DNA of 64,000 nucleotides from a virus (lineage: Duplodnaviria > Caudoviricetes), in the IMG/VR virus record IMGVR_UViG_3300020576_004352, positions 23,857 to 87,856 of that record. The stretch is one strand, 5' to 3'. The notes under the pieces are model-generated. The model did not search any database. It had not been told where the DNA came from and was given only the letters and a program-made list of their open reading frames with translations. Of the stretch, positions 33,979 to 57,312 are shown piece after piece. The position numbers and the translations under genes are program-made. The stretch's first letter is position 1. Each line of letters begins with the position of its first letter.

Positions 33979-34632
33979 ATGAGCATCATGTTAGAGGCAA
34001 TGTTTGGAGAAGAGACGTTTGACACTGGCCATGCCAAGGTGCAGCTCTTCGCCGTGCCCTCGGCCATTTATAACAAGTTTGACCGCGAATTTTTCATTGA
34101 CCAAGCGGCACGAGACAGCAAGACCAGCGTGCGTCGCATCAGCATGGAGGGGCCTTTCTCTTCCCGGTCAGACCAGTACGCCTTCCGGGACGACGTGGGG
34201 CGGTGGTGGCGGGCCGTGTATGAGCTGCCCGAGGGCATGATGATTAAAGTCTACGCCCACAAGACGCCTCCTTTCGGCGGACGGGTTATCAAGACCACGT
34301 TCATCATCCGCATGAGAGCCAATGCGGCCTACAGGCAGCTGGACATTGCCCTGACGAGGCACGAGAAGGCCCGTTTCACCTCGGCTGTCGTGAAGGGCCG
34401 CTTTGACGTTCTGCCGCTGGCTGAGGCCAAGCGCAGGGGCTACAAGCCTAACCCGGCCTTTGAGCAAATGTTTAATGAGGCCGAAATGAACAGAATTGTC
34501 TCCGTTTCAGAGATTGAGCCGGAGATTGAGGCCGAGGCCCGTGTACGGGAAAGAACCCTGAAGCGGTCAGACGGCGAGAAGCTAACTGTGCAGACCGTCA
34601 AGACGCGACGCATGATACAGTTGGATGATTAA
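33979..34632 (+). CDS. Hypothetical protein with RVRERT and C-terminal RRMIQLDD tags
   Basis: ORF after P3; GGAGA RBS. Confidence 0.6.
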   Translation: MSIMLEAMFGEETFDTGHAKVQLFAVPSAIYNKFDREFFIDQAARDSKTSVRRISMEGPFSSRSDQYAFRDDVGRWWRAVYELPEGMMIKVYAHKTPPFGGRVIKTTFIIRMRANAAYRQLDIALTRHEKARFTSAVVKGRFDVLPLAEAKRRGYKPNPAFEQMFNEAEMNRIVSVSEIEPEIEAEARVRERTLKRSDGEKLTVQTVKTRRMIQLDD

Positions 34633-34653
34633 CCAGAAGAGGAGAATGATAAT

Positions 34654-35109
34654 ATGTCACATACTACAACTATCCGGGCAGTGCCAATCCGCGACACCCG
34701 CGCCCTGAAGTCTGCCGTCGCAGACCTGCGGGCACAAGGCGTTAAATGCGAGCTGGTTGAAAACCAGAAGCCCCGCCTGTATTCCCAAGGGCAGGCAAAC
34801 GACCTCGGTAACTGCGAGTACGTCCTGCGCTTGCAAGAGAGCCGCTACGACGTTGGCTTCAAGAAGCAGGCAGACGGCTCCTACGCAGCGGTGACCGACC
34901 TGTGGGGCGGCGACGTGGGCAAGAACATCGGTGCCCGATGCCCGATGCCCACCACAGAAGAGGGCCGCGCACAGCACGGCATTGGCCGTCTGATGCAGGA
35001 GTACACCAAGCACGCCACACTGAATTACGCCAGTGACCACGGCATGATGGTGGAGAACACCACGATGGATGCGGCTGGCCAGCTGGTACTTACCCTCGGC
35101 GGTTTCTGA
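34654..35109 (+). CDS. DUF1257 (Ycf35)-like protein
   Basis: MSHTTTI...IRD...LKSA, YDVGFKKQADGSY, L.QEYTKHA. Confidence 0.75.
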   Translation: MSHTTTIRAVPIRDTRALKSAVADLRAQGVKCELVENQKPRLYSQGQANDLGNCEYVLRLQESRYDVGFKKQADGSYAAVTDLWGGDVGKNIGARCPMPTTEEGRAQHGIGRLMQEYTKHATLNYASDHGMMVENTTMDAAGQLVLTLGGF

Positions 35110-35130
35110 AAACAGAGAAGGAGAAAGCAC

Positions 35131-35334
35131 ATGGACAAGAAAGTAACCATCACGATTGATGCGCTGGGCAATCCCAAGGTTGAAGCGCACAATTTCCAAG
35201 GCCAGAGCTGCGCAGCTGCTACCGGTGGCCTTGAAAAGATGCTTTCAGGTGGTGGCGGGGTGACCACTGAGTACAAGCCTGAGTGGACACAAGAAGACAG
35301 CTCCACAAATCAGGAAGTGACACAGAGCTGGTAA
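35131..35334 (+). CDS. DUF2997-like protein
   Basis: KVTITIDALGNPKVEAHNFQGQSC...TEYKPEW. Confidence 0.75.
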   Translation: MDKKVTITIDALGNPKVEAHNFQGQSCAAATGGLEKMLSGGGGVTTEYKPEWTQEDSSTNQEVTQSW

Positions 35335-35341
35335 GGGTTAT

Positions 35342-35411
35342 GGGGAGGTAGTTAAACGGATATAACGTAGGCCGGAAAGCCTAGTTGCGGGTTCAAACCC
35401 CGCCCGCCCCA
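35342..35411 (+). ncRNA. 70-nt tRNA-like RNA with a 6-nt anticodon loop
   Basis: Cloverleaf: acceptor GGGGAGG/CCGCCCC (one mismatch), U8, D arm GTTA-AACGGATA-TAAC, stem TAGGC-CGGAAA-GCCTA, T arm GCGGG-TTCAAAC-CCCGC, discriminator A; no encoded CCA. Confidence 0.75.
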
Positions 35412-35440
35412 ACACCCAACGCATACAAGGGAGACTGGAC

Positions 35441-35797
35441 ATGGGTACTCAAGTTATAACGATTGGTACGGACGGCAGCCTGCAAGGCCTGATGCGCAAG
35501 AAGGGCGAGGGCGTTGACCTCCGGGAGTTTGGCCCAGCACATATCGAGCGCACTTCACTGATCCAGTTTGATGAGGGTAAGCAGAAGTTCTACGTGGAGT
35601 TTATTGCCGGGCCGCTGGCCGGGAAGCTGCTGACCTATCCATTATTTGCGGCCTGCACACGCCTCCCGGTACGGTTCAACAACAGCGACCACGTCATGCG
35701 ATTTGAAACCTATGAGGAGGCAGTAAAGTGTGAGATCATGGTGCTTGATGGTTATCGCGCCAGACCGCTCTGGGCATCGGCTGTGGAGGTTCTCTGA
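35441..35797 (+). CDS. Hypothetical protein, probable member of the AAA-DUF1257-DUF2997 module
   Basis: ITIGTDGSL, IERTSLIQFD, FETYEEAVKCE. Confidence 0.55.
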   Translation: MGTQVITIGTDGSLQGLMRKKGEGVDLREFGPAHIERTSLIQFDEGKQKFYVEFIAGPLAGKLLTYPLFAACTRLPVRFNNSDHVMRFETYEEAVKCEIMVLDGYRARPLWASAVEVL

Positions 35798-36172
35798 ATG
35801 TCTGCGACTGTTCTGAAGTTCAAGCCGCGTGAGGAAGCCCCGCTCAGCCCGGAGGTCATACAAAGCCGCATGGAACGCCTGCTTTACGGGCCGCTGCAAG
35901 CGAGGCTTCCCACATCAGCGTACCGGGTAATGTCCTATATCTTGGAGAATGGGGCCTTCATAGGTAACCCCCAGCCCCGGATGAAGTTCAAGGACATGGC
36001 AGCCGGGAAGAAGATCAAAGTCACACAGGTAATTTGGGCCATTGACCATCTGCATAAGGAGAGCCTGCTTGCGTTTACGGACGTAACGGAAGATCAATTC
36101 AGGGTTCAAACCTCTCTGGGTTTGATGCAGCGATATGTGGATCGCACCGCCAGACCGGGCCGCGTTGACTAA
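35798..36172 (+). CDS. Putative winged-helix DNA-binding protein
   Basis: LPTSAYRVMSYIL...DMAAGKKIKVTQVIWAIDHLHKESLL. Confidence 0.45.
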   Translation: MSATVLKFKPREEAPLSPEVIQSRMERLLYGPLQARLPTSAYRVMSYILENGAFIGNPQPRMKFKDMAAGKKIKVTQVIWAIDHLHKESLLAFTDVTEDQFRVQTSLGLMQRYVDRTARPGRVD

Positions 36173-36253
36173 TCCAGACAATCGACTATAAAGACGAAAC
36201 CGCCAAGCTGCTTTCGGAGGAGCTTGGCGGCTTCTAACCACTAACGCAAGGAC

Positions 36254-37561
36254 ATGCGAATGGCCAAAAGTTATCTACCCGAAAATAATAACGCTGTAAA
36301 GCACCTACCTATGCAACAGAAGATGGAGGCGCTTGAGATTTTATACCAGAAAATACATCCGCACCTGAGCCCTGCCGAGAGCATGGTTCTCAACTTCATT
36401 TATATGCGGACGTATAAGTGGGGCAAGGTCAGCGAACACATTAGTTTCAAGCACTTCCTAGAGGGCATATTCACCCATGAGGGAGAGTCGCTGCTAGCTG
36501 GGCTTAATATGTCCCGGAGAACACTGGGCACGTGCCTGAACTCCCTGAAGGACAAAGGGGTGATTTTCGCCACAGAGCACAAGAAAAATAACGGGCAGGA
36601 CGATATGTCCGAATACCGGATGAACATGGAGTGGACTTCTATGCTGAAAATGCCGAAAAGACTAAAAACTAGCGGAAATCCTGAGAAAAATGGGGGGTGC
36701 AAATCTTGCCAAGGGGGGGTGCAAAATTTGCCAGAGGGGGGTGCAAAATTTGCACCCCTTAAGTACATAAATAAAATACATAAAGATAAACAAGTAGAGC
36801 GACAGGCGGAGCCTGCGCATACCGAAGAGGATATTTTATCAGCGATAAGCACTGCCAAAGGCAGAGCGACGGCTTCCCGGTTAAAGAAGGTTGAGCGTGC
36901 CCGGAGTAATCCGCAGAGCGTGGCCAGCCTTTTCACGGTTTGGGAACACGCCTTGCGGACACACTTCCCGGATTACCCGGTGGTGCAGCCTTGGACACGC
37001 AAGCAGCTGGGCCAGATGGCGGACTTCCGCACCGCCTTCGGCAAGAGCAACACGGGGGCAAGCGTCGCGGCTTTTGTGGAGTTTTGTGTCCAGCATTGGC
37101 GGCGCATAGGCGTGCTGCAATTCGCAAATCTGAAAAATGGAAGTTTCCCACTTTACCCGGATATTGGTTTCCTGATGGGCATGAAGCGGGGCTTTCTCAC
37201 CAGCTTCGCGGATAATGATTTTGCAGGCCGCACCGCCAAGTTTACCGAGGCGGATCGCAAGACCGCCAAGCTGCTCCGGCAAGGGTACACGCAGGCCGAG
37301 GCCGAGCGGGCCGTGCAGCAGGATACGGGCAGCAGGCGGGCTCTTGACCAGCAGCTGGCAGAGAATGACCGCGCCCGGCTCGATAACATTGCCCTGAAGC
37401 GAAAGCTGGAGGATGCCAAGCGTGATAATCGCGACCTGCGGGAGCTGGCTGCGGTGGGGGCCAAGGAGCGGGTACTCGCCAAATTTGAGAAGGCAAAGAT
37501 GAAAATAAATATCCGGGACGGGGACGCAGAGCTTCAGCCTTTGCCCGGCTGGTGCGAATAA
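36254..37561 (+). CDS. Replication initiator protein (lambda O-like)
   Basis: N-terminal wHTH (LSPAESMVLNFIYMRTYKW...MSRRTLGTCLNSLKDKGVI); internal iterons; upstream of loader and helicase. Confidence 0.75.
   Translation: MRMAKSYLPENNNAVKHLPMQQKMEALEILYQKIHPHLSPAESMVLNFIYMRTYKWGKVSEHISFKHFLEGIFTHEGESLLAGLNMSRRTLGTCLNSLKDKGVIFATEHKKNNGQDDMSEYRMNMEWTSMLKMPKRLKTSGNPEKNGGCKSCQGGVQNLPEGGAKFAPLKYINKIHKDKQVERQAEPAHTEEDILSAISTAKGRATASRLKKVERARSNPQSVASLFTVWEHALRTHFPDYPVVQPWTRKQLGQMADFRTAFGKSNTGASVAAFVEFCVQHWRRIGVLQFANLKNGSFPLYPDIGFLMGMKRGFLTSFADNDFAGRTAKFTEADRKTAKLLRQGYTQAEAERAVQQDTGSRRALDQQLAENDRARLDNIALKRKLEDAKRDNRDLRELAAVGAKERVLAKFEKAKMKINIRDGDAELQPLPGWCE
36692..36790. repeat. Probable replication origin: three GGGGGGTGCAAA iterons plus A-rich tract
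   Basis: Third copy is the inverted repeat GGGGTGCAAA-A-TTTGCACCCC; followed by TTAAGTACATAAATAAAATACATAAAGATAAA. Confidence 0.75.
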
Positions 37562-38118
37562 TGACTGTCGAGCAGAAGAAGGACGAGATCGCCCGCAGCA
37601 TGGTGAGCGCAGGGATAGGGAACTTTTATCACGGGGTTACGTTAGCGTCCTTCGGCTCAGCAGGTGAGCAGGTGAAATCGCGCATGAATGAACCGGGGTT
37701 CAAATCAGCGGTACTATCAGGCAGCGGATTTAACATACTCAGTACCGATCTCAAGGAATGCACCTTCCCATTTGTGGTGGCGCGGGCCTTACGTCTCGCC
37801 CGCATTGATGCGCGAGCTGTCCGCCTGATGCCCCTGCTGCGGTTTATCGAGGCCGGGCATACGGAAGACTTTGACGATATCCGGTTTGCTGAGTTTAACC
37901 GTGCACAGGCGTTGGTCATTCCGGGATTTTTTGAGCAGCTTGATGAGAAACCTTTCACGCGCAGAGAGCTGTACCGAATTGAAAACTTCCTGACCGAGAT
38001 GATGGATAACGGGTTCTCGGTCAGCGTGCAGCACTACGGCAGCCTTGACAGACAGGACTGGTTTTCGCCCCGCCTTATTGCCCGGCTGCGAGAGTGTAAT
38101 ATGGAGGTCACGATATGA
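37561..38118 (+). CDS. DnaC/IstB-like helicase loader with degenerate P-loop
   Basis: TAATG coupling; position between initiator and DnaB; overall layout DnaC-like, no GxxGxGKT. Confidence 0.5.
   Translation: MTVEQKKDEIARSMVSAGIGNFYHGVTLASFGSAGEQVKSRMNEPGFKSAVLSGSGFNILSTDLKECTFPFVVARALRLARIDARAVRLMPLLRFIEAGHTEDFDDIRFAEFNRAQALVIPGFFEQLDEKPFTRRELYRIENFLTEMMDNGFSVSVQHYGSLDRQDWFSPRLIARLRECNMEVTI
37689..37702. promoter_or_regulatory. Palindromic site TGAACCGGGGTTCA
   Basis: Inside the loader gene. Confidence 0.65.
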
Positions 38119-39428
38119 GCCTAGGACTTAATGCCGTTCGGGCAATCGTCGATAATGGCTCCCTCGAGCTTTTCCGCACACTGAAGCCTGAATGGTTCGT
38201 GGACACGGAAGAGCCTATCTATGCGTTTGTGCAGGGCCACGTGCGCAGGTACGGCACTCTTCCGGGTATAGAGACGCTGCGGGAGAATGGGCACCGTCTC
38301 GCCGCTGTGCGCGAGCCAGCAGCCTATTACGTTGAGCGGCTGGCCCAGCGGGCTGTCTATGCTGCGGTGAGTGACCGCCATGCTGAATTCATTGAGGCTA
38401 TGAAGAGCCGTGACACCGAGCAGATTAAACAGCACCTTGCTGAAATGCTCGTGGCCACAAGGCAGGTGGATTACCGGCAGGACTACTCAACTCTCATGGA
38501 GCAGCTGCAAGGTGTCATAAGCGACTATCAGGAGGCGAAGCGATGCCCCGGCCTTCAAGGTGTCACGCTGGGAAACCCTGTGCTGGATGCGGTAACCAAC
38601 GGGGGGCAGGCAGGTGATCTGATCGTGATCGCTGGACGCCCCAATATCGGCAAGAGCTGGGCACTGCTATCAATGCTGCGCGGCGCTTGGAAGGCCGGGC
38701 ATAGTGCGGCAGTGGTATCGATGGAGATGCCTTCACGTCAGCTGTCCCGCCGTCTTCTGGGCATGGAGAGCGGCCTTAACCCCGATATGCTGCGGCGAGG
38801 TGAGCTGTCCTCAAATTATGGGGAGAGTGCCTTCTACCAGACGATTGAGCGGATCGGAAACCTGCCGCCTATAAGTTTCCTAGAGGGCAGTTTCAGAAAG
38901 ACTGTCGCGGATATTGATAACCTCGTGCAGCAGCGTGCCCCGGATATCTTACTGGTGGATGCCGCCTATCTTGTCTCGCCAACCAGTGCCCAGCGTAACG
39001 CTTCTGTTCGGGACTTAAAGAACACGGTACTTGAGGAGCTGAAGAGCTTGGCAATTGATCGTCGCATACCGGTGGTGCTGAGCTGGCAGTTGAACCGGGA
39101 GGCCAAGCGCAATGGGAAGAACGGACTTGACCTCAGCCATATCGCAGAGACTGATGGGCTGGGACAGATCGCGTCGGTAGTGATTGGGATGGTCAAGGGC
39201 AAGGTGCCACTTGAGGCCAGCACTCGTGAATATCAGATCATCAAAAACCGTGAAGGTCAGTTATTATCATATCATACCAACTTCTCTTTTAACCCCATGA
39301 ACTTTGACTATATCGAGGGTAGCGAGTTCGAGGACGGGGTTAGACCAGAGGGCTCTGGTGATACTGATGAGGGCGTGAGTGAGACAGATCGTAATATGGA
39401 TATGGAAAACAGCGGCTGGGAGATTTAG
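38115..39428 (+). CDS. dnaB: DnaB-like replicative helicase
   Basis: AGRPNIGKS, SMEM, LVDAAYL, LSWQLNRE, IIKNREG. Confidence 0.92.
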   Translation: MSLGLNAVRAIVDNGSLELFRTLKPEWFVDTEEPIYAFVQGHVRRYGTLPGIETLRENGHRLAAVREPAAYYVERLAQRAVYAAVSDRHAEFIEAMKSRDTEQIKQHLAEMLVATRQVDYRQDYSTLMEQLQGVISDYQEAKRCPGLQGVTLGNPVLDAVTNGGQAGDLIVIAGRPNIGKSWALLSMLRGAWKAGHSAAVVSMEMPSRQLSRRLLGMESGLNPDMLRRGELSSNYGESAFYQTIERIGNLPPISFLEGSFRKTVADIDNLVQQRAPDILLVDAAYLVSPTSAQRNASVRDLKNTVLEELKSLAIDRRIPVVLSWQLNREAKRNGKNGLDLSHIAETDGLGQIASVVIGMVKGKVPLEASTREYQIIKNREGQLLSYHTNFSFNPMNFDYIEGSEFEDGVRPEGSGDTDEGVSETDRNMDMENSGWEI

Positions 39429-39430
39429 AA

Positions 39431-42400
39431 ATGGCGCGTAAGCTAAGTGCTCCGGTAGAGGAAGATACGATTGCCCCGGTCAAACTGAAGAGGCTGCCCA
39501 CTCTCGGTGATATGGAGCGGGCGCGTATTGCTGTGGTGTGCGATGCGCCAAGCCAGAAGAGTTGGGATAAGTGTCTGCCGATCAGTGACGGTGCCTTGAA
39601 CCTCTTTGCCAGCACGGCTACTGAGTGTGACTTCAAGAAAGATGATTTTTTCTTTATTGCGCCGTGCCCTCCGATCCCTGAGGAGATTGAGAAAAACGAG
39701 CGCCGCATTGCGGCCCATGCGCTGCCTTACCAAGAGCAGGTCAAGTCCATTATTGAGGACATGCAGCCCGACCTGATTATTTTCATGGGCAAGTGGGGCG
39801 GGCGTGTTCTTACCGGGAAGTCAGTAAAGATTACGAAAGCCCGTGGCACCTTTATCAGCGTGAATGTGGCTGGTACTGATTATCCTGTGCTGCCCATGCT
39901 GTCGCCCGGCCATGTGTATCATCGCCCGGAGCTAAAAGATATTTTCGTTACTGATTTTATGATGGCCATGCGTTTGCGTGACCGCAAGTATAACCTTGCC
40001 GCTGTACAGGCTGACATAAGCGACACCAAGGACTACCGGTGGTGTACTGACCTTTCGGAGTTATTAGCTAACCCGCCTAAGATGATCTCAGTGGATACTG
40101 AAACCACTGGTCTTAAATGGTGGACGGCAGGCACCGATGACCCGGACGCTGTAAAGATTTTGACGGTGCAGATTGGCTTGGGTAAGGGCCGTGCGCTGGT
40201 AGTGCCCATGGACTGCGACTACTACCCTGAGCTTACTCCAAAGAAGCGGGCGAAGCTGTTAGGGCAGTTGCGCAAACTTCTCGAAAATCCAAAGATTAGA
40301 AAGGCTGGGCATAATTTCAAATACGATACCCACGTGCTTCGTGAGGATTTGAATATCTATATCGACTATGACTGCGACACACAGTTGCTGGCCTTTATCG
40401 TTGACGAAAACATGCAGGAAAAGAGCTTGGACGAATGTGTGCGCCGTTGGGTGCCTCGCCTTGCTGGATACAATGACGAGCTGAATAAGAAGCTGGATAA
40501 AGAGAACATGCGCTCCACCTCCCATGAGGACATGCTGGAGTATGGTGGTGGCGACGTTGACGCTACATTTGACTTGGCGCTGATCCTCACCAAGCTGGGC
40601 AAGAAGGATGCCCGGCAATGGAATTGCTACCAGCGGATTATTCTCCCTGCGATTAAGGCATTCTGCGATCCCGTGGAGCTATATGGTGTTCGCGTGAATA
40701 CCAAAGTTTTGACTGACCTTGAACGTGAGCTGGCCATAGCGGAGCGTGAGCAATACGACATTCTGATTGATCAGGTACCTGCCGCCATTAAGCGCAAGCA
40801 CGCTGACAAAGGCCTGAAGTTTAGCCGTGCCGCTTTTTTAGTGGACATTCTTTTCACCAAGCAGGGGCTTAACCTGAAGCCGCGTGTGTTCACAGCTAGC
40901 ACAGCGAAGCTGCCTGAGGATCAGCGCATACCCTCCGTATCCGCGAAGCAGCACCTGCCCTTCTTTATCGAGAACCCCTTTGTGGCGCAACTATCCGAAT
41001 ACGTGAAGCTGGAGAAGTTGCGCAGCACCTATGTGGGCGTGCCCTATGATGAGAAGAAGAAAGGCCCGACTGGTTTCTGGCAGTACATCCATAACAATGA
41101 AATCCACCCATCCTTTATCCTGCACCGTACTGTCACAGGACGTGCTGCTTGTTTAACAGGTGATACTTTAATATCTGTTTTGGATGAGCGCGGGCTTGTT
41201 CCGATGCGAGATATTAAAGAGGGTGATTGGGTTTGGTCATTTAATGACCAGCTTAAACCGCAAGCGGCAAAAGTAAGCTGGTCAGGCAAAACGAAGAAAA
41301 AAACGAAAATAGTTAGGGTAAGCTACTTAACGCAGGGAACGCGAGAAGTTAAAAGCATCCGTTGCACCCCCGATCATCTTTTTAGATTGCGGGATGGTTC
41401 TTATGTCCGCGCCGATCAGCTAAGCGCGGGCCACCGCCTTCTTTCCATAGAACGGCAAGAAAATGAACGTGGCTACCGCAGAGTACATTTTACCGGATGC
41501 GAAGGCCGTTCATGGCCAGAACACCGATTAGTATACCAGTCTATGCATAGCGAGCTTACAGAGCATGTCCACCATGTGGATGAATGTAAACTAAATAATT
41601 GCCCTGATAATCTCGAAGGGCTTACGAATGAAGAGCATGGAACCCGTCATCGCTGGACACCTAAACGTACTGCACAGATGAAGGCGTATCGTGCAAAACT
41701 TAAAAAAGAAAATCGCCTTCCTGCTATCAAAAGGCGCACAGGCAAAAACCATCCTATGTACTACGAGCTAGATGTAGAATGGGCTAAAAAGGTTCTTTGG
41801 GATAACGGTGGAAAGCCGAGTGTATTCAGAGACGTATATGACCTAGATTACACGGCGATAATGACCAAACTCAAAGCAGCCGGGGTTGACTGGCGTGCCA
41901 TAAGAAGCAGCTTTAATTCCCGTGGTGAGCGTATTGATGATGCCTTACTAGCCAAGGCGAAAAAAGCCAATACCCTTCATGAAGCTGCTAAAACCTTAGG
42001 TGTAAACTTTTATCGCGCTAAAGAGCTTTTAGCAGACGATCATAATCATGCGGTTGTAGGGGTTGAGTATTTAAACCAGCGCGAAGATGTGTACGACATA
42101 ACCGTTCCCGGCACTCATAATTTCATTGCGAATGGGGTGTGTGTTCATAACAGTGTAAATCCAAATGGCCAAAACTTCCCCAAGCGAGGCAAGCTGGCCA
42201 AGACCTACCGTAAAATCTTTGTGGCGCGTAAGGGTTACAAATTATTGGAATGTGACCTCTCGCAGGCGGAGATCAGAATTGCCGCATGGATGGCAAATGA
42301 AAAGAACATGATCCGTATCTACAAGGCCGGGGGCGACATTCACGCCGCCACTGCGGCTCACACAATGGGCCTCACGTTAGAGCAATTTAACGCGCTGGAT

Positions 42401-43030
42401 AAGGACACAAAGAAGGCAAAACGCCAGCAGGCTAAGGCTGTGGTTTTCGGTTATATCTACGGAATGTGGTGGAAGAAGTTTAAGATATATGCAAAGACAG
42501 ATTATAACTTAGATTTTACTGATGAACAAGCAGCCAAACTAAGAGAAGATTTTTTCAGTGCGTATCCCGGCCTTGTAGAATGGCATGAAGCCATGCGAGA
42601 TCAGGTGAACAAGTATGGGTATGTTCGGGCTTTACACGGGGCTAAGCGTAACCTGCCCTCAGTGTATTCCCCGGAAGACTATATCAAACAGGAAGCGCAG
42701 CGGCAGGCGATTAACTCCCCAGTGCAGCGGTTTGCCTCTGATCTTGGTTTGATGGCCATGGTACGCCTTACCCGCGATGCCGACCCGGAGGTTATCCGCC
42801 CGTTATTGTTCATTCACGATGCGCTTGTGGTTGAGGTGAAGGAAGAATTTGCTGAGCAGGCGCAGGGCTGGATTAAGTATTATTTTGAGAGCGCCCCTCT
42901 TGAAAAATGGTTTGATATTGTTCCACCTTTACCAATCGTGGCAGACGTTTCTACCGGCTACAATCTTGGTGAGATGGAAGAATGTGAAGGTGTCAAAGCG
43001 GTTAAGCCTCCCTTTGCAGGTGTTGATTAA
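39431..43030 (+). CDS. polA: Family A DNA polymerase with UDG-like N-terminus, 3'-5' exonuclease and intein
   Basis: SVDTETTG, GHNFKYD, YGGGDVD; TVTGRAA/intein/SVNPNGQNFP; DLSQAEIR, AKAVVFGYIYG, IHDAL. Confidence 0.95.
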   Translation: MARKLSAPVEEDTIAPVKLKRLPTLGDMERARIAVVCDAPSQKSWDKCLPISDGALNLFASTATECDFKKDDFFFIAPCPPIPEEIEKNERRIAAHALPYQEQVKSIIEDMQPDLIIFMGKWGGRVLTGKSVKITKARGTFISVNVAGTDYPVLPMLSPGHVYHRPELKDIFVTDFMMAMRLRDRKYNLAAVQADISDTKDYRWCTDLSELLANPPKMISVDTETTGLKWWTAGTDDPDAVKILTVQIGLGKGRALVVPMDCDYYPELTPKKRAKLLGQLRKLLENPKIRKAGHNFKYDTHVLREDLNIYIDYDCDTQLLAFIVDENMQEKSLDECVRRWVPRLAGYNDELNKKLDKENMRSTSHEDMLEYGGGDVDATFDLALILTKLGKKDARQWNCYQRIILPAIKAFCDPVELYGVRVNTKVLTDLERELAIAEREQYDILIDQVPAAIKRKHADKGLKFSRAAFLVDILFTKQGLNLKPRVFTASTAKLPEDQRIPSVSAKQHLPFFIENPFVAQLSEYVKLEKLRSTYVGVPYDEKKKGPTGFWQYIHNNEIHPSFILHRTVTGRAACLTGDTLISVLDERGLVPMRDIKEGDWVWSFNDQLKPQAAKVSWSGKTKKKTKIVRVSYLTQGTREVKSIRCTPDHLFRLRDGSYVRADQLSAGHRLLSIERQENERGYRRVHFTGCEGRSWPEHRLVYQSMHSELTEHVHHVDECKLNNCPDNLEGLTNEEHGTRHRWTPKRTAQMKAYRAKLKKENRLPAIKRRTGKNHPMYYELDVEWAKKVLWDNGGKPSVFRDVYDLDYTAIMTKLKAAGVDWRAIRSSFNSRGERIDDALLAKAKKANTLHEAAKTLGVNFYRAKELLADDHNHAVVGVEYLNQREDVYDITVPGTHNFIANGVCVHNSVNPNGQNFPKRGKLAKTYRKIFVARKGYKLLECDLSQAEIRIAAWMANEKNMIRIYKAGGDIHAATAAHTMGLTLEQFNALDKDTKKAKRQQAKAVVFGYIYGMWWKKFKIYAKTDYNLDFTDEQAAKLREDFFSAYPGLVEWHEAMRDQVNKYGYVRALHGAKRNLPSVYSPEDYIKQEAQRQAINSPVQRFASDLGLMAMVRLTRDADPEVIRPLLFIHDALVVEVKEEFAEQAQGWIKYYFESAPLEKWFDIVPPLPIVADVSTGYNLGEMEECEGVKAVKPPFAGVD
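41150..42151 (+). other. 334-aa intein with HNH endonuclease
   Basis: CLTGDT start, CTPDH block B, EHRLVY...HVHHVDECKLNNCPDNLE, VYDITVPGTHNFIANGVCVHN end, +1 Ser. Confidence 0.92.
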
Positions 43031-43037
43031 AAAAGCA

Positions 43038-43067
43038 CTTGACAAAAAAAATGTAATGGGTTAGGGT
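43038..43067 (+). promoter_or_regulatory. Promoter P4
   Basis: CTTGACA-N17-TAGGGT. Confidence 0.7.
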
Positions 43068-43104: not shown

Positions 43105-43554
43105 ATGACCCGCATTACAAAGACCGCTGTTGCCCGTGAGCGCACCCGCACGATTGACCTGACTGTTGAGGTTACGCCGGAGGAAGAGCTGCGCAAGCTG
43201 ACGGTGGCTACCTACAAGACAAACAAAGAGGCCAATGCTGCGAAGAATACCTACGAGAAAACCCGCAGCTCCCTTTTGGCAGCTATGGGAAAGCACAGCC
43301 GCAAGCATTTTGTGACCGGCGCTGTTGACCTTGGCGGTGGCGCTGTAAGCAGCCTCAAGGCTGAGGTTAAAGCCCCTGAGGGTAATGACGTTGACGTTTC
43401 CAAGCTGCGCACACTGGTGACGGATGACGTGTTTATGAAAATCATTAAGGCTACCCAATCCAGTGTTGAAGCCCATGCGGGTAAGACGGTGCTGGCGCAG
43501 TGCCTTATCCCCACAAAGGGCGAACCCAATGTTAGCGTGAAGGTGCAGAAGTGA
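43105..43554 (+). CDS. Hypothetical basic protein with N-terminal RERTRTIDL
   Basis: ATG 43105 with GGAGA RBS. Confidence 0.6.
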   Translation: MTRITKTAVARERTRTIDLTVEVTPEEELRKLTVATYKTNKEANAAKNTYEKTRSSLLAAMGKHSRKHFVTGAVDLGGGAVSSLKAEVKAPEGNDVDVSKLRTLVTDDVFMKIIKATQSSVEAHAGKTVLAQCLIPTKGEPNVSVKVQK

Positions 43555-49165: not shown

Positions 49166-49172
49166 TATTTTT

Positions 49173-49186
49173 TGAACCCCGGTTCA
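49173..49186. promoter_or_regulatory. Palindromic site TGAACCCCGGTTCA
   Basis: Just upstream of the recA RBS. Confidence 0.75.
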
Positions 49187-49198
49187 CTGGAGACAAAT

Positions 49199-50371
49199 AT
49201 GGTCAAAGAAGTAGCCCCGCGCACTCGTGAGCGCACCCGGTCTAATCCCGGTGGTGAGGGTAGCGAAATCGGTAAAATGATGGACGATGTTAAAAAGCGC
49301 ATGGGCGAGGGGGTGGTCAGTCTCGGTATGGCAGATGTTGCCACCACCTTTATCGAGACGGGGGTTTTCCTGCTTGATATGGGATTGCTGGGCGGGGTGG
49401 CAGAGAGCCGCATTACGCAAATCTACGGGCACAGTGCAGCAGGGAAGACGACCATATCTTCACGTCTGGTGGCGGCAGCCCAGAGAAAGCATCCCGACAA
49501 GGTGGCCGTGCTGCTCGATGTGGAGGGCACATTTGACCGGCAATGGGGCGAGCGTGCCGGTATCGACAGTGATCGCCTTGTGTACGTGCAGCCAGAGACA
49601 GGCGAGCAGGCTGTGGATATTCTTGAGGCGTCTATCCGATCAGTGGAGAGCTGCATCATTGTTCTGGACAGCCTTCCCGCACTGGTGCCTCAGACCATTA
49701 TTGAGCGTAGCGCAGAGGATAAGACAATGGCGGCACGGGCTGCTTTGATCGGAGTGGCCTGCTCGAAGATGCTTGCCTCTCTGGCGGCAGAGCGCAAACG
49801 CAAGCACTACCCCGCAATCATCATGACCAACCAGTGGCGCAGCAAGGTCGGCTTTGTCATGGGTAACCCGAATATCCTACCGGGCGGGCAGCAGCCTCGA
49901 TATGCCAGCAGTGCCATGATCGAGATCAAGAAACGCAAAGAGGAGATGGGTAAAGACCGGTACGATAACGACGTGTCCCTGTATAACGAGCACGCTTTTG
50001 ATATCGACAAGAGCAAGGCCGGGGCCAGTGTAAGGCAGGGCGAGTTCCGGCTTGTCACAGCAGACGAGTACGAGTGCCTTGACGCTCCCGGTCTGCGCCT
50101 GCCTGCGGGGTCTGTTGACGACTACAAAGTGGTGGCGACCTACGCAAAGCGTATGGGTTTTATCACAGGTGGAGGGGCCAGCTGGACTATTGATGGGATT
50201 GACCGCAAGTTTAATAAGGTCGAGACGATTGTGCGGTTCTTGGCGGAGAGCCCGGAAGAATTCATTCTTCTGAAACGCAAGATGATCGCACTGAGGAGAT
50301 CGGATATTGGATTGCCTCCCATCCCCCGTGACGGGTATTTGCTTGGTTATGTACCCAAGGGGAGGAAGTGA
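49199..50371 (+). CDS. recA: RecA/UvsX-like recombinase
   Basis: IYGHSAAGKT, LDVEGTFD, QPETGEQA, VLDSLPAL, TNQWRSKVG...GNP; ATG 49199 with GGAGA RBS. Confidence 0.92.
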   Translation: MVKEVAPRTRERTRSNPGGEGSEIGKMMDDVKKRMGEGVVSLGMADVATTFIETGVFLLDMGLLGGVAESRITQIYGHSAAGKTTISSRLVAAAQRKHPDKVAVLLDVEGTFDRQWGERAGIDSDRLVYVQPETGEQAVDILEASIRSVESCIIVLDSLPALVPQTIIERSAEDKTMAARAALIGVACSKMLASLAAERKRKHYPAIIMTNQWRSKVGFVMGNPNILPGGQQPRYASSAMIEIKKRKEEMGKDRYDNDVSLYNEHAFDIDKSKAGASVRQGEFRLVTADEYECLDAPGLRLPAGSVDDYKVVATYAKRMGFITGGGASWTIDGIDRKFNKVETIVRFLAESPEEFILLKRKMIALRRSDIGLPPIPRDGYLLGYVPKGRK

Positions 50372-51682: not shown

Positions 51683-52263
51683 TGAGCAAAGTATTCATTG
51701 GCATTGATGCCAGCCTATCTCGCACAGGGTTATCCTTTACTGATGGTCTTGGTCACTTTGTAAAGAGCATGACAGTATCTGCGCCAAAGGACATGCGCGG
51801 CATGCCACGGCTCGATAACCTTCTGGCTCAGCTGACCAAGATAATGGACGAGTGCCCCAATCTTGCAGGGGCGGCCATAGAGGGTTATGCCTTCGGCGTG
51901 CGTGGGGGAAGGCTTGCCGATCTGGCGGAGTGGGGCGGGCTTATCCGCATACTGCTTTATAGGCTGCGCATCCCCACTATTGTAGTACCACCAATGACCC
52001 TGAAGAAATTCCTGCACGATGGGAAGTTGGAGAAAAATCAGGTGTTGTTGCAGGTCTATAAACAATACGGACACTCTTTTGACACAGACGATGAGGCGGA
52101 TGCTTTTGTGTTGTCCGAAATGGCCCGTAGCTGGGTGCTTAGCTCTGATGATTTGCCCACCCGTAAAAAAGAGGCCTTGCAAAAAAGTTCTGTGTTGGTA
52201 TCTAAAAAACCTGTGAGAGAGCGTGAGCGCAACACAAAAAGTTTGAACCCCGGTTCAAACTAG
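51682..52263 (+). CDS. ruvC: RuvC-like Holliday junction resolvase
   Basis: IGIDASLSRTG, AIEGY, PMTLKKF, DDEADA. Confidence 0.85.
   Translation: MSKVFIGIDASLSRTGLSFTDGLGHFVKSMTVSAPKDMRGMPRLDNLLAQLTKIMDECPNLAGAAIEGYAFGVRGGRLADLAEWGGLIRILLYRLRIPTIVVPPMTLKKFLHDGKLEKNQVLLQVYKQYGHSFDTDDEADAFVLSEMARSWVLSSDDLPTRKKEALQKSSVLVSKKPVRERERNTKSLNPGSN
52244..52257. promoter_or_regulatory. Palindromic site TGAACCCCGGTTCA
   Basis: 8 bp upstream of P6. Confidence 0.75.
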
Positions 52264-52265
52264 CA

Positions 52266-52295
52266 CTTGACAAAAAAACTGTTATGCACTATGTT
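52266..52295 (+). promoter_or_regulatory. Promoter P6
   Basis: CTTGACA-N17-TATGTT. Confidence 0.75.
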
Positions 52296-52338
52296 GTGCG
52301 TATCAAATGTTGATTTTAACTGGAGAGAGGAACCTAAA

Positions 52339-53559
52339 ATGACGAAGAACACGGTAGCAATCAAGAAGGGCGACCGGCTTACGTTTAAGGGGTACACCGA
52401 CCTTGGAGACGGCATGGAGCCGCTCTTCGAGGAAGGCGACACCCTTATCGCTGCCGAGGTCACCAAGGACAAGAATGGTGATGTGAAGGTTAAGGCCTAT
52501 AAGGAAGGCGGCGATAAGGATGAGATTGATACTCTCTTCTACCCTGATGAGGTGGATTTGGCCTCTGACGACGCTGACGAAGAGGCCGAGGAAACCGATG
52601 AGGTTGAGGCTGACGAGGAAGAGGCCGATGAGGCTGAAGCCGATGAAGCGGAGGAAGAGGTTGAGGAGGTAAAGCCTGTCAAGACCAAGGCCAAAGCGGT
52701 AGCCAAGACCAAGGAAGAGGCTCCGGCGAAAGCCAAGGCCAAGCCTGCCCCGGCACCTGCTCGCACACAGGAAGAGGCTGAACAGCAGCCCATCCACCAC
52801 ACCAAGACCGTGGCCAAACTGCTCAAGAAGGCAGACAGCGGAGACGGCATTCTCGAGGCAGCCAAGGCCCTGCGTGTGCAGGGTGAGCAGACCAAGTTCA
52901 ATCTTGGTGGCGTGTTGGCTGAAATCCAGAGCAAGAAGTCCTACGTTGCTGCTGGATACACGGGCGAGAGTGGCTGGCAGGATTATCTGCGCGACGAGCT
53001 CAATGTAGAGTATCGCAGTGCGATGTACTACATCGAGATTTACAAGACGTGCAGCGAGCTCGGGATTGATGAAGAGCGCATTGCGCATATCGGGTGGACG
53101 AAGCTGCGCAGTGTGGTGAAGGTCGCCCGTAAAATCACGGATAAGCAGCTCGACAAGTTGCTTGAGCGTGCCGGTAAGCTGACCCGTGATGAGCTCGATG
53201 CCTATATCGACAAGAATTTTGTCGGTAGCGGGGCTTCCCCGGAGCGCATCGCCAAGGTCACCTACAAGTTCACGGCGATGGGTGATGAGGCAGAGTACAT
53301 CAACAACTCCATCGCCCGTGCGCAGGAGCTCGTTGAAGGTGGCGACGTTAACTCGGCCATGAAGCACATTATTCGCGAGTGGGCTATGCTTGCGGACGGT
53401 GTCGAGATGAAGCTCGAGGACGGCCTGAAGGCCCTTGAAACCCGGTTCGGTGTCAAGCTGGTGGTGGCTGGAGAGCCCGAAGTCGAGGCAGAGGAAGAGG
53501 TCGAGGAGACTGAAGAGGCTCCTGCCAAGGCCAAAAAGGCTGCCGCGAAGCGCAAGTAA
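52339..53559 (+). CDS. Putative abundant DNA-binding protein: SH3-like N-terminus, acidic/Lys linker, DUF3102/ParB-HTH-like domain
   Basis: GGVLAEIQ...WQDYL..ELNVEYRSAMYYIEIY...IGWTKLR; histone-like AKKAAAKRK tail. Confidence 0.55.
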   Translation: MTKNTVAIKKGDRLTFKGYTDLGDGMEPLFEEGDTLIAAEVTKDKNGDVKVKAYKEGGDKDEIDTLFYPDEVDLASDDADEEAEETDEVEADEEEADEAEADEAEEEVEEVKPVKTKAKAVAKTKEEAPAKAKAKPAPAPARTQEEAEQQPIHHTKTVAKLLKKADSGDGILEAAKALRVQGEQTKFNLGGVLAEIQSKKSYVAAGYTGESGWQDYLRDELNVEYRSAMYYIEIYKTCSELGIDEERIAHIGWTKLRSVVKVARKITDKQLDKLLERAGKLTRDELDAYIDKNFVGSGASPERIAKVTYKFTAMGDEAEYINNSIARAQELVEGGDVNSAMKHIIREWAMLADGVEMKLEDGLKALETRFGVKLVVAGEPEVEAEEEVEETEEAPAKAKKAAAKRK

Positions 53560-53579
53560 CGAGGCGTGATTTGAAAAGC

Positions 53580-53620
53580 AAGGGCAGTAGGCTATAGTAA
53601 ACCTACTGCCCTTTTTTCTT
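53580..53620 (+). terminator. Intrinsic terminator
   Basis: AAGGGCAGTAGG-N10-CCTACTGCCCTT then TTTTCTT. Confidence 0.8.
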
Positions 53621-53631
53621 GAGAGTGTCTT

Positions 53632-54075
53632 ATGACTGCCCAGTTAAAAAATATCCTGCTGAAACTCACGCTCTTAGTCGGACTTGGCTTTGGCAGAGTT
53701 GAGCAGTATGCGAGGACGGAGGTAAGGCGGTTACTGATCCACAGGATCGTATTTCCGCTATGCCCAGAGCCTCCTCAAGAGCCAGCAGATGATGCTGGCC
53801 CCGCTTGGAGTGACCGCGTCGTACTGCATCGTTTCCGCCCGGTCACACGCTCTTGGGAGCCTATAACCTTGGCAGAACGAAACAGGCTCCGGGTTAACGA
53901 CCTTGTGCGGTTACCCCTGCACGGGTTTATCGCGGCCACAAAAGAGCAAATATTCCACACAGACGAGGATAATTTTATCTTCTGGCGCGTAGCGGATATG
54001 CGTGATGTTGATGGGGATGGTATCCCCCAGCTAATAGTTAAACCGATACAATGGATTAGCAGACGATCTCACTGA
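53632..54075 (+). CDS. Hypothetical protein
   Basis: 147-aa ORF with DVDGDG motif. Confidence 0.45.
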   Translation: MTAQLKNILLKLTLLVGLGFGRVEQYARTEVRRLLIHRIVFPLCPEPPQEPADDAGPAWSDRVVLHRFRPVTRSWEPITLAERNRLRVNDLVRLPLHGFIAATKEQIFHTDEDNFIFWRVADMRDVDGDGIPQLIVKPIQWISRRSH

Positions 54076-54093
54076 CTAACGGGAGTATGTCCT

Positions 54094-54528
54094 ATGGCAA
54101 GGGTTAGAGAACGGTCACGTCCTGCCGCTGTTGTCGCTGTGCTGCCTAAAGAAAACAAGGCAGGATACCGCAGATATATTGAACTGACTTACCGCATCAT
54201 CGAATGTAAAATCATGTACTACTACCCTGACCTGATTAAGGAAGGGTATCACCCCGGCCTTGAGATTTCAGACGATGACTATGATGCTATGGAGATCGAA
54301 TACCTGAAACTCTGCAAAGAGTTAGGCCAAAAGAACACCTTGGTTCACAAAAGGTATCCGGGCTTGGAAGTTGACGGGCCGGGGATGTTCGAGGTGGATT
54401 TCACCCGTCCCATTGTTCACCTAGTCATGCGTAAATTCGGTGTTACGAATTGGCAGCAGAAGTGCGGTATGGCTAACAATGAGGCTCCCGATAAGAAATA
54501 TTTTGCTCACCTGCAAGAAAGCACTTGA
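54094..54528 (+). CDS. Stand-alone NAD-dependent ligase domain Ia-like protein
   Basis: MYYYPD...ISDDDYDAMEIEYLKL; no KxDG adenylation motif. Confidence 0.65.
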   Translation: MARVRERSRPAAVVAVLPKENKAGYRRYIELTYRIIECKIMYYYPDLIKEGYHPGLEISDDDYDAMEIEYLKLCKELGQKNTLVHKRYPGLEVDGPGMFEVDFTRPIVHLVMRKFGVTNWQQKCGMANNEAPDKKYFAHLQEST

Positions 54529-54553
54529 CCAAAAAACTGTTATGGACTATATA
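54524..54553 (+). promoter_or_regulatory. Promoter P7
   Basis: CTTGAC-N17-CTATAT. Confidence 0.8.
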
Positions 54554-54601
54554 TTCAGGTGTTGGAGGGGCACTGGTGCCCGACATAGCTGGAGAGCCAA
54601 A

Positions 54602-55033
54602 ATGACCTACTTAGTTAAAGTTGATAATGAGCGCAGCAGTGCATGGGTGTCGGTTGTAGAGGTTGCCAAGTACGTGCGCAGCCTGCTGAAGCGGAGCTTC
54701 CCGGCTGTGAAATTCTCAGTGACCAGCGACAAATATGCAGGCGGCTCAAGTATCCGCGTGTGTTTTGACGTGCCGGAAGGCTTTGATAAGAAGGCAGTCA
54801 GTGAGGCTATCGGCCACCTGCATGGCCACGGCTTTGATGGGTCTATTGATATGGGGTATTACCGCGAACATTACCTGCTGCCTGACGGCACGATTGTTTA
54901 TGCAGGCACGGGCGGAACCACTGGCAGCGGCGGATACGTTGAGCCGGTCAAGGTGGAGCAGCCAGAAGGCGCTATCAAGGTGAGCCTGAGCAATAGCTTC
55001 ATTTTCTGCACAGCCAATGGTCGCACCATCTAA
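54602..55033 (+). CDS. LPD29-like protein (large polyvalent protein domain)
   Basis: EVAKYVRSLLKRSFPAVKFSV...SSIRV...GFDGSIDM; ATG 54602. Confidence 0.65.
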   Translation: MTYLVKVDNERSSAWVSVVEVAKYVRSLLKRSFPAVKFSVTSDKYAGGSSIRVCFDVPEGFDKKAVSEAIGHLHGHGFDGSIDMGYYREHYLLPDGTIVYAGTGGTTGSGGYVEPVKVEQPEGAIKVSLSNSFIFCTANGRTI

Positions 55034-55048
55034 GGGAGGGCTGACAAG

Positions 55049-55525
55049 ATGCCCGCAATTTTGAACCCCGGTTCACTGGCGTGTCCTATTGACGCAAACA
55101 CCCGTGCCAGATTTGCAGGAGTTGAGAAGTTTGCCCGTATAGTTGGCTATCAGGCAAGACTGGTACTCAGCCCGGACAGGAATAATCCTGACAGAGAGCA
55201 GGTACGAGTTATTTGTGTGCCAGAGCATGGCCCATATGTGGAGTTCGACGATGTGGAGCAGGCTCGCCGGACCTTTGAGCGCATGGCTTGTATTCGCCTG
55301 TGTGGTGGTGACGCAGACGATATGCTTGGCGCATACCCAGAGCCGGGAGGCAGAGCAGTTGCCGCAGCCGAGGTGCTGGTGCAGCAGTGGAGGGACAGTT
55401 TTCCCGCCCTGACGAGCTTCTCTGAGGAGGTACGAGAAATAGTCAAAGAGATGCAGAGGAACGACAAAGTTCCTGAGGAGAACAGGCACCTCCCGCGTAG
55501 AATTATAAACCTTCAGGACGATTGA
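55049..55525 (+). CDS. Hypothetical protein, C-terminal RRIINLQDD
   Basis: GGGAGG RBS. Confidence 0.55.
   Translation: MPAILNPGSLACPIDANTRARFAGVEKFARIVGYQARLVLSPDRNNPDREQVRVICVPEHGPYVEFDDVEQARRTFERMACIRLCGGDADDMLGAYPEPGGRAVAAAEVLVQQWRDSFPALTSFSEEVREIVKEMQRNDKVPEENRHLPRRIINLQDD
55062..55075. promoter_or_regulatory. Palindromic site TGAACCCCGGTTCA
   Basis: At a gene start. Confidence 0.7.
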
Positions 55526-55527
55526 CT

Positions 55528-55935
55528 ATGGCAATCACAAGACACATCCATAGAGACCCGGCAAAGGCACGCGAGGCCGAGCGGCTGCGCGGACAATTCC
55601 AGCGGGTGCTGCGCCTGATAAAGTTTAGCCCGGTATCGCAGAACGGCTACCAAGGCGTAAGCGGGCGGGTGGCGACGTGGGATAGCTGGCTGCTGTCATA
55701 CCTCCTGCATCGCCTGAAGTTCTTGTCCAATAACCCATTTGTGGTGAATTGGCTCATGGAGTGGTCAGGTAGCCGGGCGGGATGGAGCACTCTGCATGGT
55801 AAGTTTGCTGACCCGCAGTCGCGCAGAAAGAGGATGAGAGATGATTTCTTCAGTCGCAGAGCAGGAGCCACAGACTTGAGAAGGCTGTCCGATATCTCGA
55901 CCGGGGCCCGTAGATGCATTAACTTGGAGGACTGA
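55528..55935 (+). CDS. Hypothetical protein, C-terminal RRCINLED
   Basis: Coupled ORF. Confidence 0.55.
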   Translation: MAITRHIHRDPAKAREAERLRGQFQRVLRLIKFSPVSQNGYQGVSGRVATWDSWLLSYLLHRLKFLSNNPFVVNWLMEWSGSRAGWSTLHGKFADPQSRRKRMRDDFFSRRAGATDLRRLSDISTGARRCINLED

Positions 55936-56247
55936 ATGTTTGGATTTAAAGTGAAGGCAAAGGTTGCCCCGGCACCCGCTTCTGAAACGTCCATGCCCTT
56001 TCCCGGTGATCGGGAGTTGATCTCTGTGGTGTACTGCACCTTCGGGCCCATAAAGGTCTATATGCCTACGATGCAGGATATGGAAGGGCTTGATGCCAGT
56101 CACCCCAATTTCTACAAGGTGGTGGCATCAAAGGCGACTAACATGAGTTATGCCGAATTTCAGAATATGAGCTTTATCGACGGCAGTGTCATCGTGCATA
56201 CGATTGCAGATGCCTTTGATAGGCTACACCCTTTCGCGGTAAGGTGA
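55936..56247 (+). CDS. Hypothetical protein
   Basis: GGAGG RBS within the upstream gene end. Confidence 0.5.
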   Translation: MFGFKVKAKVAPAPASETSMPFPGDRELISVVYCTFGPIKVYMPTMQDMEGLDASHPNFYKVVASKATNMSYAEFQNMSFIDGSVIVHTIADAFDRLHPFAVR

Positions 56248-56250
56248 ATT

Positions 56251-56859
56251 ATGATGAAGTTCGCAGCGCAGCAGTTCATTGCCGCATACCAGAATGTGGA
56301 GATAGAGCCTGAGAAGTATGTGCCTCCCTGCATAGCGGACGTGCGCAACTTCCTGCGTCATTTTGGGGACGTGGCCTTACTCGACCTCGAGTTCAGATAC
56401 GGACTGGCACTCGCGGGCGGGGCTCTGCCCACTGTTTCTGTGGTGATGGGTATGGGCACAGGGCTTAGTCCCTTCCAAAGGCTGCTGTGGGAGGCGTATG
56501 GGCTCTCCTTCGGTGTAATAGTGGGGCCTCAAACAGAGAGTATTCGCTGGGAGAGCCTAGAGGGCGAACACAGTATGCGTGGGTCTGACCTGACAAATAT
56601 TGCGATGGGTGGCCCGTTTCCTGTGTTCATAAACCAGATGAATAACCCCTCGCGTCGCACCCTTGATTATCAGTTAGACATAACGATGGCACATTATCTG
56701 GTGGAGGATAATACCGCTCTGCGTCAGATGATAAAGGCGAGAAAGCCCGACATGTTTTTGAAGTACTGCGGCTATCTGAACGGGGTGCAGGTAGACCAAA
56801 CACTGGTCGATGTTACACCTCCGCGCACTTTCAGGCGGCTGATTAACTTGGAGGACTAG
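56251..56859 (+). CDS. Hypothetical protein, C-terminal RRLINLED
   Basis: 202-aa ORF in tandem operon. Confidence 0.55.
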   Translation: MMKFAAQQFIAAYQNVEIEPEKYVPPCIADVRNFLRHFGDVALLDLEFRYGLALAGGALPTVSVVMGMGTGLSPFQRLLWEAYGLSFGVIVGPQTESIRWESLEGEHSMRGSDLTNIAMGGPFPVFINQMNNPSRRTLDYQLDITMAHYLVEDNTALRQMIKARKPDMFLKYCGYLNGVQVDQTLVDVTPPRTFRRLINLED

Positions 56860-56862
56860 CAG

Positions 56863-57312
56863 GTGGCCACGCACTATAAACTAGCGGAGGATGGGGCCAC
56901 GCCAGTGCCATGCAGTCTTGATGAGTGGGGCAGCATGGTGAAGGATGATCGGCGCAGATTTGTGGCCCGTGATACGTTCTCAAGACCAAGAGATATCAGC
57001 ACAGATATTATAGAGGTATCAACGGTCTTTGTGGGTATGGATATGAGCCTAGGGTATAACCCCGCTCCGGTACTGTGGGAGACGATGTTATTTGGAGACA
57101 TTGACATAGGAGAGGGTGGCAACTCGTGGCGGCATACCTCCCTACAAAATGCGCTGCTGGTGCATGCGGAAATAGTGGGGAGGGTTAGGGGCCTTCTGTT
57201 TGATCTGGCCGATCTGGAGCCACAGCAGCCTCTACAGGAGAGTGTCCCGGCTCCCGTGCCAGATACGTTACCTTGCTCTGGAAAACGCAGGATCAACTTG
57301 GATGAGGATTGA
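56863..57312 (+). CDS. Conserved phage hypothetical protein, C-terminal KRRINLDED
   Basis: VSTVFVGMD..LG..P.LWETMLFG motif. Confidence 0.6.
   Translation: MATHYKLAEDGATPVPCSLDEWGSMVKDDRRRFVARDTFSRPRDISTDIIEVSTVFVGMDMSLGYNPAPVLWETMLFGDIDIGEGGNSWRHTSLQNALLVHAEIVGRVRGLLFDLADLEPQQPLQESVPAPVPDTLPCSGKRRINLDED

Follow-up and report, generated by a model that had tools for sequence, protein, structure and literature searches.

An 87.8-kb phage contig (Duplodnaviria; Caudoviricetes; IMG/VR record IMGVR_UViG_3300020576_004352; estimated completeness 81%) was analysed over a window of 64,000 nucleotides, corresponding to bases 23857-87856 of the contig, in which five open reading frames (ORFs) on the + strand finish in the peptide [RK]RxI[NQ]Lx(x)D with the stop codon directly after it. 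This peptide, referred to below as the tag, is the near-invariant C-terminal signature of a family of proteins of ~215 aa, here called the neighbour family, whose gene lies beside that of a p97/Cdc48-like AAA ATPase. The tag has also been gained independently by unrelated proteins, namely four orphans in this phage and, in its relatives, the DNA polymerase and the product of the gene that follows it, portals (at the N-terminus) and further orphans. With moderate confidence, and judging from sequence, we favour the reading that the tag serves as a short linear motif for docking or recognition, whose single putative receptor co-evolves with it and is tied to a module made up of the AAA ATPase, its neighbour, DUF1257 and DUF2997. 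Coordinates are window positions unless marked as contig.

The claim of the initial annotation that five tags abut stop codons was confirmed by translation of the window (Table 1). In a six-frame scan of the entire contig, the loose pattern [RK][RK].[IVL].L.{1,2}[DE] gave 11 matches, five of which abutted a stop, and a stricter tag pattern gave eight matches, all of them on the + strand. The five C-terminal matches compare with 0.016 expected from shuffles over 146 non-nested ORFs, and none of 2000 shuffles gave five. When the same pattern, fixed in advance, was applied to Rhizobium phage L338C, which is syntenic with this contig from the terminase through the recombination genes, three C-terminal matches were found against 0.017 expected (gp004, RRKINLD; gp015, RRLIDLSD; gp159, RRRRHVNLDD), with looser copies in gp005, gp009 and gp012. 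The related copies listed earlier were likewise all present. RKTIDLTD lies six residues before the end of the 58467..58856 protein, a possible weaker client; RERTRTIDLTVE lies within the N-terminal tail of the 43105 protein; and KRRVLNLSEE (60359-60388), which is truly internal, is the weakest of these cases.

Table 1. Members of the AAA module, tags and tag carriers in the window
Feature	Position	Strand	Remarks
p97/Cdc48-like tandem AAA ATPase, 561 aa	32185..33870	+	Pfam AAA, E 4e-28; best PDB sequence match p97 D2, E 3e-56
Neighbour protein, 217 aa	33979..34632	+	gene directly after the ATPase gene; ends in RRMIQLDD
Tag RRMIQLDD	34606-34629	+	C-terminus of 33979..34632 protein
DUF1257 (Ycf35-like) module member	34654..35109	+	Pfam PF06868, E 2e-8; same position in relatives
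DUF2997 module member	35131..35334	+	Pfam PF11211, E 2e-6
Post-polymerase protein, DUF7173-like, 149 aa	43105..43554	+	tag in N-terminal tail, ARERTRTIDLTVE at 43132-43170; Atlas feature matches to DUF7173 clusters
Orphan, 158 aa	55049..55525	+	ends in RRIINLQDD; no Pfam/PHROG, no body similarity
Tag RRIINLQDD	55496-55522	+	C-terminus of 55049..55525 protein
Orphan, ~137 aa	55522..55935	+	ends in RRCINLED; no Pfam/PHROG, no body similarity
Tag RRCINLED	55909-55932	+	C-terminus of 55522..55935 protein
Orphan, 202 aa	56251..56859	+	ends in RRLINLED; no Pfam/PHROG, no body similarity, no IMG/VR relative found
Tag RRLINLED	56833-56856	+	C-terminus of 56251..56859 protein
Orphan, 149 aa	56863..57312	+	ends in KRRINLDED; BLASTP E 0.03 to L338C gp159 over N-terminal 73 residues
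Tag KRRINLDED	57283-57309	+	C-terminus of 56863..57312 protein
129-aa protein with RKTIDLTD	58467..58856	+	RKTIDLTD at 58812-58835, six residues from the C-terminus; pattern scan

A recurrent gene end of this kind could arise without any common function, from diverged paralogues, from recent copying of 3' gene ends, or from a DNA or RNA signal that happens to be translated, such as a ribosome-binding site (RBS) or a site of translational coupling. Four of the five tagged genes do lie in tandem (55049-57312), and two of the tags are identical over a 15-nucleotide stretch, ATTAACTTGGAGGAC (55918-55932 and 56842-56856), which includes the GGAGG serving the next gene; this points either to recent copying of the tag end or to joint selection for tag and RBS. 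Paralogy, however, was ruled out, as BLASTP detected no mutual similarity among the five tagged bodies, which had been described from the outset as unrelated. None of the five bodies matched a Pfam or PHROG family, and for the four orphans no close relatives were found in IMG/VR or INPHARED. The Arg codons of the tags differ (CGA CGC, CGT AGA, AGG CGG, AAA CGC AGG) and the DNA alignment is limited to the tag codons, which indicates that selection acts on the peptide and not on the DNA and rules out a signal at the DNA level. In the fifth case the RBS is located 3' of the stop codon; overlap with the RBS is real but secondary, and the earlier statement that it does not explain the tag was upheld by the varying Arg codons. 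The peptide is, moreover, kept by hundreds of homologues despite their divergence and by proteins without mutual homology, in genomes whose GC content spans 53-62%, and it is found in N-terminal tails as well. An origin without common function is thus largely refuted, and we consider it highly improbable.

The neighbour gene was directly 3' of the ATPase gene in every locus examined (~18), and a profile search of 1.84 billion representatives recovered 479 cluster representatives of its family at E<=1e-3. The C-terminus of these proteins is built of a beta-hairpin (GExVxV), a basic run and R-A-[LI]-[DN]-L followed by 0-2 acidic residues, with the consensus RRRRALDL(D)-COOH and individual tails such as RRRRALDL, KRRKINLED, RERRVLNLED and RPRAINLDD. 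Counted from the last hydrophobic residue, Arg occupied position -4 in 125 of 126 anchored tails. Position -2 is Leu or Ile and position 0 is Leu, Ile or Val, while position -1 is acidic (Asp or Glu) in 75 of the tails. The AlphaFold2 (AF2) model of the neighbour (mean predicted local distance difference test score, pLDDT, 95) comprises a beta-rich domain and an unstructured tail. No PDB match to this fold was obtained (best Foldseek E 0.04; best VIA Z 4.3), its matches in BFVD were solely uncharacterised phage proteins, including one from Pseudomonas phage SM1, and a fold search of the ESM Atlas returned nothing usable. The initial annotation had proposed to abandon the tag should it not be conserved at the protein level in orthologues; it was instead found to be kept at 25-40% identity, both in the neighbour family and in the pair formed by the 56863..57312 protein and L338C gp159. 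The latter two are probable orthologues on the strength of their N-terminal match, and the tag is retained between them with a different linker preceding it.

The ATPase was modelled with a mean pLDDT of 90, and residues 16-525 of the model align to p97 D1-D2 (p97 residues 207-763; Z 25.8 over 472 residues, root-mean-square deviation 8.4), so that the protein is predicted to have the type II, p97/Cdc48-like tandem D1-D2 AAA fold. The model opens with a D1-like domain at residue ~16, leaving no space for an N-terminal double-psi-barrel cofactor-binding domain. This D1-like half is degenerate, with RTREP in the place of the Walker A motif, and D2, in which Walker A (GAPGTGKS) and Walker B (VLLDE) are intact, is predicted to be active; its pore loop is of the Φ-V-G type, SLVG in this phage and F-V-G in some relatives. 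Against TIGR01243 (CDC48) the protein scored 127.5 bits, below the cut-off of 802.65, and only the D2 region matched. At E<=1e-60, >4600 proteins in public data belong to this large family. Relatives of the ATPase were found in L338C (47% identity), Aeromonas phage HJ05, Agrobacterium phage JP1, Rhodobacter phage RcMenchie and the Pseudomonas SM1/PaMx31 group.

As in the model of the neighbour, the C-terminal tail of the ATPase (residues ~530-561) is disordered; it holds RTRTR (33781-33795) and ends in ALTDDLDG (33844-33867). In 120 homologues the tail consists of an invariant R-x-R-x-R, a linker of small residues and then G-[GK]-R-x-Φ-x-L-D-[GS]; Φ-x-L-D-[GS] ends the tail in most of them, the commonest forms being DLDG, GLDG, SLDS, SLDG and NLDG. 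By this sequence likeness, the ATPase tail carries a variant of the tag peptide.

Seven proteins of this phage have a further Arg motif, (V)RER[TS]R, in a terminal tail, at window positions 33781-33795, 43135-43149, 49226-49240 and 54106-54120 and at contig positions 11971, 17913 and 21968. Its carriers are the ATPase tail, the post-polymerase protein, the N-terminus of RecA, the 54094 protein, a TerS-like protein, the portal and one further C-terminus; the RecA proteins of relatives have basic N-terminal extensions. If the tag is bipartite, this motif may form its upstream half.

The ATPase gene is adjacent to genes for DUF1257 and DUF2997 proteins, as in the Ycf46/DUF1257/DUF2997 module. The order ATPase-DUF1257-DUF2997 was kept in the related loci L120-L123, and among five further relatives DUF2997 was present in all and DUF1257 in three. 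The DUF2997 proteins have a conserved C-terminus of their own, [IV]KQ[GS]W-COOH in relatives and TQSW in this phage.

The spread of the tag beyond the module was followed in 15 related genomes with a position-specific scoring matrix built from the neighbour tails only. Between one and four C-terminal carriers were found in 14 of the 15, against ~0.3 expected per genome, and the pooled C-terminal zone gave 38 matches where the interior rate predicts 4.5 (~8-fold). The carriers that were compared by BLASTP were mutually non-homologous, and of those scanned against Pfam nearly all lack a family. DNA polymerases are tagged at their C-termini in many relatives (NPRRRLDLK, YKRRLELLDA, GLRIIKLRKAA), and the post-polymerase protein is tagged N-terminally in all close relatives, its orthologues beginning VRTRERSIDLGD (L120) and VRARERALDLND (L121).

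The form of the tag differs from phage to phage, being INL[ED]D here, [LMS]IE[LM] in relative G010, I-x-[LI] with a basic end in relative G002 and RRR-I/V-x-Φ-P in HJ05. Between tails of different proteins, identity at six variable positions was 2.23 within genomes and 1.24 between genomes, a difference not reached in any of 5000 label shuffles. As the tags of this phage had been picked by pattern, the comparison was repeated with this phage left out, and the same co-variation was seen (1.95 versus 1.25; again 0 of 5000 shuffles). Such co-variation within a genome is predicted by a shared, co-evolving reader, and it speaks against reading by a strongly conserved pocket of the host, such as that of the beta clamp.

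The latter point bears on the view that the tag is a clamp- or helicase-interacting peptide, comparable to the PIP box, the bacterial clamp-binding motif or the gp45-binding tails of T4, which tethers the polymerase, the post-polymerase protein, the ATPase and accessory factors to a component of the phage replisome or to the host beta clamp. Clamp-binding motifs typically sit at either terminus of unrelated proteins, and like them the tag is a short terminal motif common to polymerases and unrelated proteins; the tagging of polymerases and post-polymerase proteins described above and the position of the module directly upstream of the RepO-like, DnaB and PolA genes are in keeping with such a role. 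One tagged protein of relative G005 (L126:630-1376:-) has a weak match to BRCT (E 3e-4, which lies at the Pfam cut-off); as a scaffold domain of DNA repair, it would fit this view. The residues themselves, however, do not follow the bacterial motif (QL[SD]LF or QLxLxL, with Gln at position 1 and hydrophobic residues at 4-5), as the neighbour tails have Arg in place of the Gln with the single exception noted, and the last Leu is followed by an acidic residue or by nothing, in place of Phe or Leu. The tag also varies strongly between phages, in contrast to the highly conserved clamp pocket of the host. No clamp was identified, nor was a fold resembling one, the neighbour protein having no PDB match, and the DNA polymerase of this phage has no tag at its C-terminus. 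Tethering to the replisome or the host clamp is thus, in our estimate, unlikely.

Less likely still is that the tag is a signal for virion loading, by which the ATPase would place its carriers in the procapsid or tail to be co-injected, in the manner of the payloads of Pvc15 in extracellular contractile injection systems (eCIS), or of encapsulin or T4 capsid-targeting peptides. For this there is the precedent of Pvc15 (PMC11495950), and the portal N-termini are tag-like in this phage (RTRKINLSDEE), in L338C (TRAVRLDDGQED) and in HJ05 (RRTLQLVEG). In L338C, the tagged genes gp004, gp005, gp009, gp012 and gp015 are located in the interval from terminase to portal, and the tagged orphans of the present phage could be injected anti-defence proteins. 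The module, however, lies in the replication region and not in the morphogenesis region, and the ATPase, the polymerase and the 149-aa post-polymerase protein are themselves carriers. The portal case is weakened in that portals of the wider family generally start with a basic beta-strand, which may be structural. In addition, 1.1 Mb of portal-flanking DNA from 80 relatives yielded a single strict tag. Loading into the virion thus appears to us improbable.

We therefore return to the docking peptide as the favoured reading. Its motif core is R-x-Φ-x-L-D, placed after at least one extra basic residue in a disordered terminal tail. All carriers would be read by a single receptor that co-evolves with them, and the most economical candidate for it would be a site belonging to the AAA ring or to one of the small partners of the ring. 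The tag would then recruit its carrier to the machine as a client, as an adaptor or as a competitor of the ATPase's own tail, and the purpose of recruitment would be ATP-driven remodelling. Several observations weigh against this. The module lies beside replication genes and the polymerase is a frequent carrier, so that the reader could instead belong to the replisome, DnaB or an unknown processivity factor being examples. The pore loop of this phage's ATPase, SLVG, lacks an aromatic residue; the tag on the ATPase itself is awkward for a simple view of a degron for its own unfoldase; and the AF2 monomer leaves the ATPase tail undocked, no docking in cis having been seen when it was looked for. 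The enrichment in the pooled N-terminal zone (42 matches against 23.6 expected) is soft, as the gene calls and start codons of the comparison genomes are heuristic. Finally, the co-variation of the tag within genomes would arise equally with a host-specific reader.

The initial annotation had proposed a phage-wide targeting signal. This proposal is partly supported, its link to the AAA module being borne out both through gene adjacency and through the tag being the module's own tail signature. The tag is not, however, peculiar to this phage but marks a widespread gene module, and it also occurs N-terminally, on the ATPase and on DNA polymerases. The readers then suggested, an unfoldase, an injection or export apparatus and a common host partner, are no more than candidates, and a host partner that is highly conserved is disfavoured by the genome-specific co-variation.

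More speculatively, the tag could be the address code of a widespread but unstudied phage machine for protein remodelling, made up of a p97-like ATPase without an N domain, the neighbour, DUF1257 and DUF2997, to which any protein that gains a tail of 6-9 residues would be delivered. Phages would use such delivery to set when replication, portal and anti-host proteins are unfolded, assembled or loaded into virions, with tag and reader co-evolving as a private code in each lineage. We put this forward tentatively, as a possibility that is doubtful in its full extent. If the tag serves to bring proteins to an unfoldase or a loader, phages would provide a new case of modular addressing, and the peptide could become a portable tag for engineering. 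A transferable short peptide that marks the partners of a machine offers a direct experimental handle, and it allows clients to be listed in any genome from sequence alone. In the literature we found no description of the module, of the tag in L338C or of C-terminal motifs shared in this way by phage proteins. The ATPase family shares its gene set with the long-orphaned Ycf46, Ycf35 and DUF2997 proteins of cyanobacteria and plastids, and we know of no function for the ATPase family or for any of these three.

All genes of the contig are on the + strand, and the AAA module is followed 3' by the RepO-like, DnaB, PolA and primase genes. The portal ORF occupies window positions 1-922 and starts 1897 bases before the window (contig 21959-24778); it encodes 939 aa, compared with ~585 aa in relatives, and contains an insertion of ~360 aa (roughly residues 411-770) with a LAGLIDADG domain inside, probably an intein with a homing endonuclease within the portal gene. 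The family A DNA polymerase (39431-43030, 1199 aa) carries an intein splicing domain and an HNH endonuclease at residues ~584-907. Two nearby small ORFs (62554-62787 and 63029-63190) have the identical final 15 residues LDFDADEAYLYEMEL, which suggests a local duplication.

The phage system shares features with several known systems, and none of the families compared is matched here in full. C-terminal degrons of the ssrA/ClpX type finish in non-polar residues (LAA-COOH) or in an RRKKAI-type end, in contrast to the tags, which end in D, E, G or S and have further copies in N-terminal tails. The HbYX tails of PAN, Rpt, Cdc48 and Blm10 and the GQYL tails of mycobacterial Mpa and Bpa dock in pockets of the 20S proteasome. 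In common with them, the tag is a C-terminal peptide found both on an AAA ATPase and on unrelated proteins, which in the HbYX and GQYL systems compete for the same receptor pockets. It differs in its basic-Φ-x-L-acidic character and its occurrence in N-terminal tails; no proteasome-like partner is encoded, and the penultimate Tyr of a hydrophobic-Tyr-X end was found in none of the 126 neighbour tails and none of the 120 ATPase tails. In p97/VCP, the C-terminal tail DDLYG is read by PUB and PUL domains, and the Arg-rich VBM and VIM motifs are read by the N domain. The phage ATPase, which aligns to D1-D2, has a disordered acidic tail ending in DDLDG, and the Arg run and Leu of the tag recall the VBM; unlike p97, however, it has no N domain and no Walker A motif in D1, and PUB/PUL or UBX proteins are not present.

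In cyanobacteria and plastids, the gene sets formed by Ycf46 (AAA), Ycf35 (DUF1257) and DUF2997 (for the DUF2997-ycf35 cluster, PMC4284462) bring together the same three families in adjacent genes; the description given here of the ~215-aa neighbour, and of a tag that has spread to further proteins, concerns phages only. Pvc15 is a tandem AAA protein in which only D2 is active and which selects payloads by terminal signal peptides (PMC11495950). Its N domain and its N-terminal signals of ~50 aa set it apart from the phage ATPase, which has no N domain and for which the tag has 6-9 residues, is mostly C-terminal and occurs on the ATPase itself; the contig contains no eCIS genes. Nevertheless, the eCIS ATPases of the Pvc15/Afp15 type (PMC11495950; PMC9054023) resemble the phage system both in a tandem AAA architecture with D2 alone active, D1 of the phage protein having RTREP, and in a short disordered terminal peptide carried by unrelated proteins. 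Likened by this described architecture and not by homology, Pvc15 would be the nearest working precedent for the reading of the tag.

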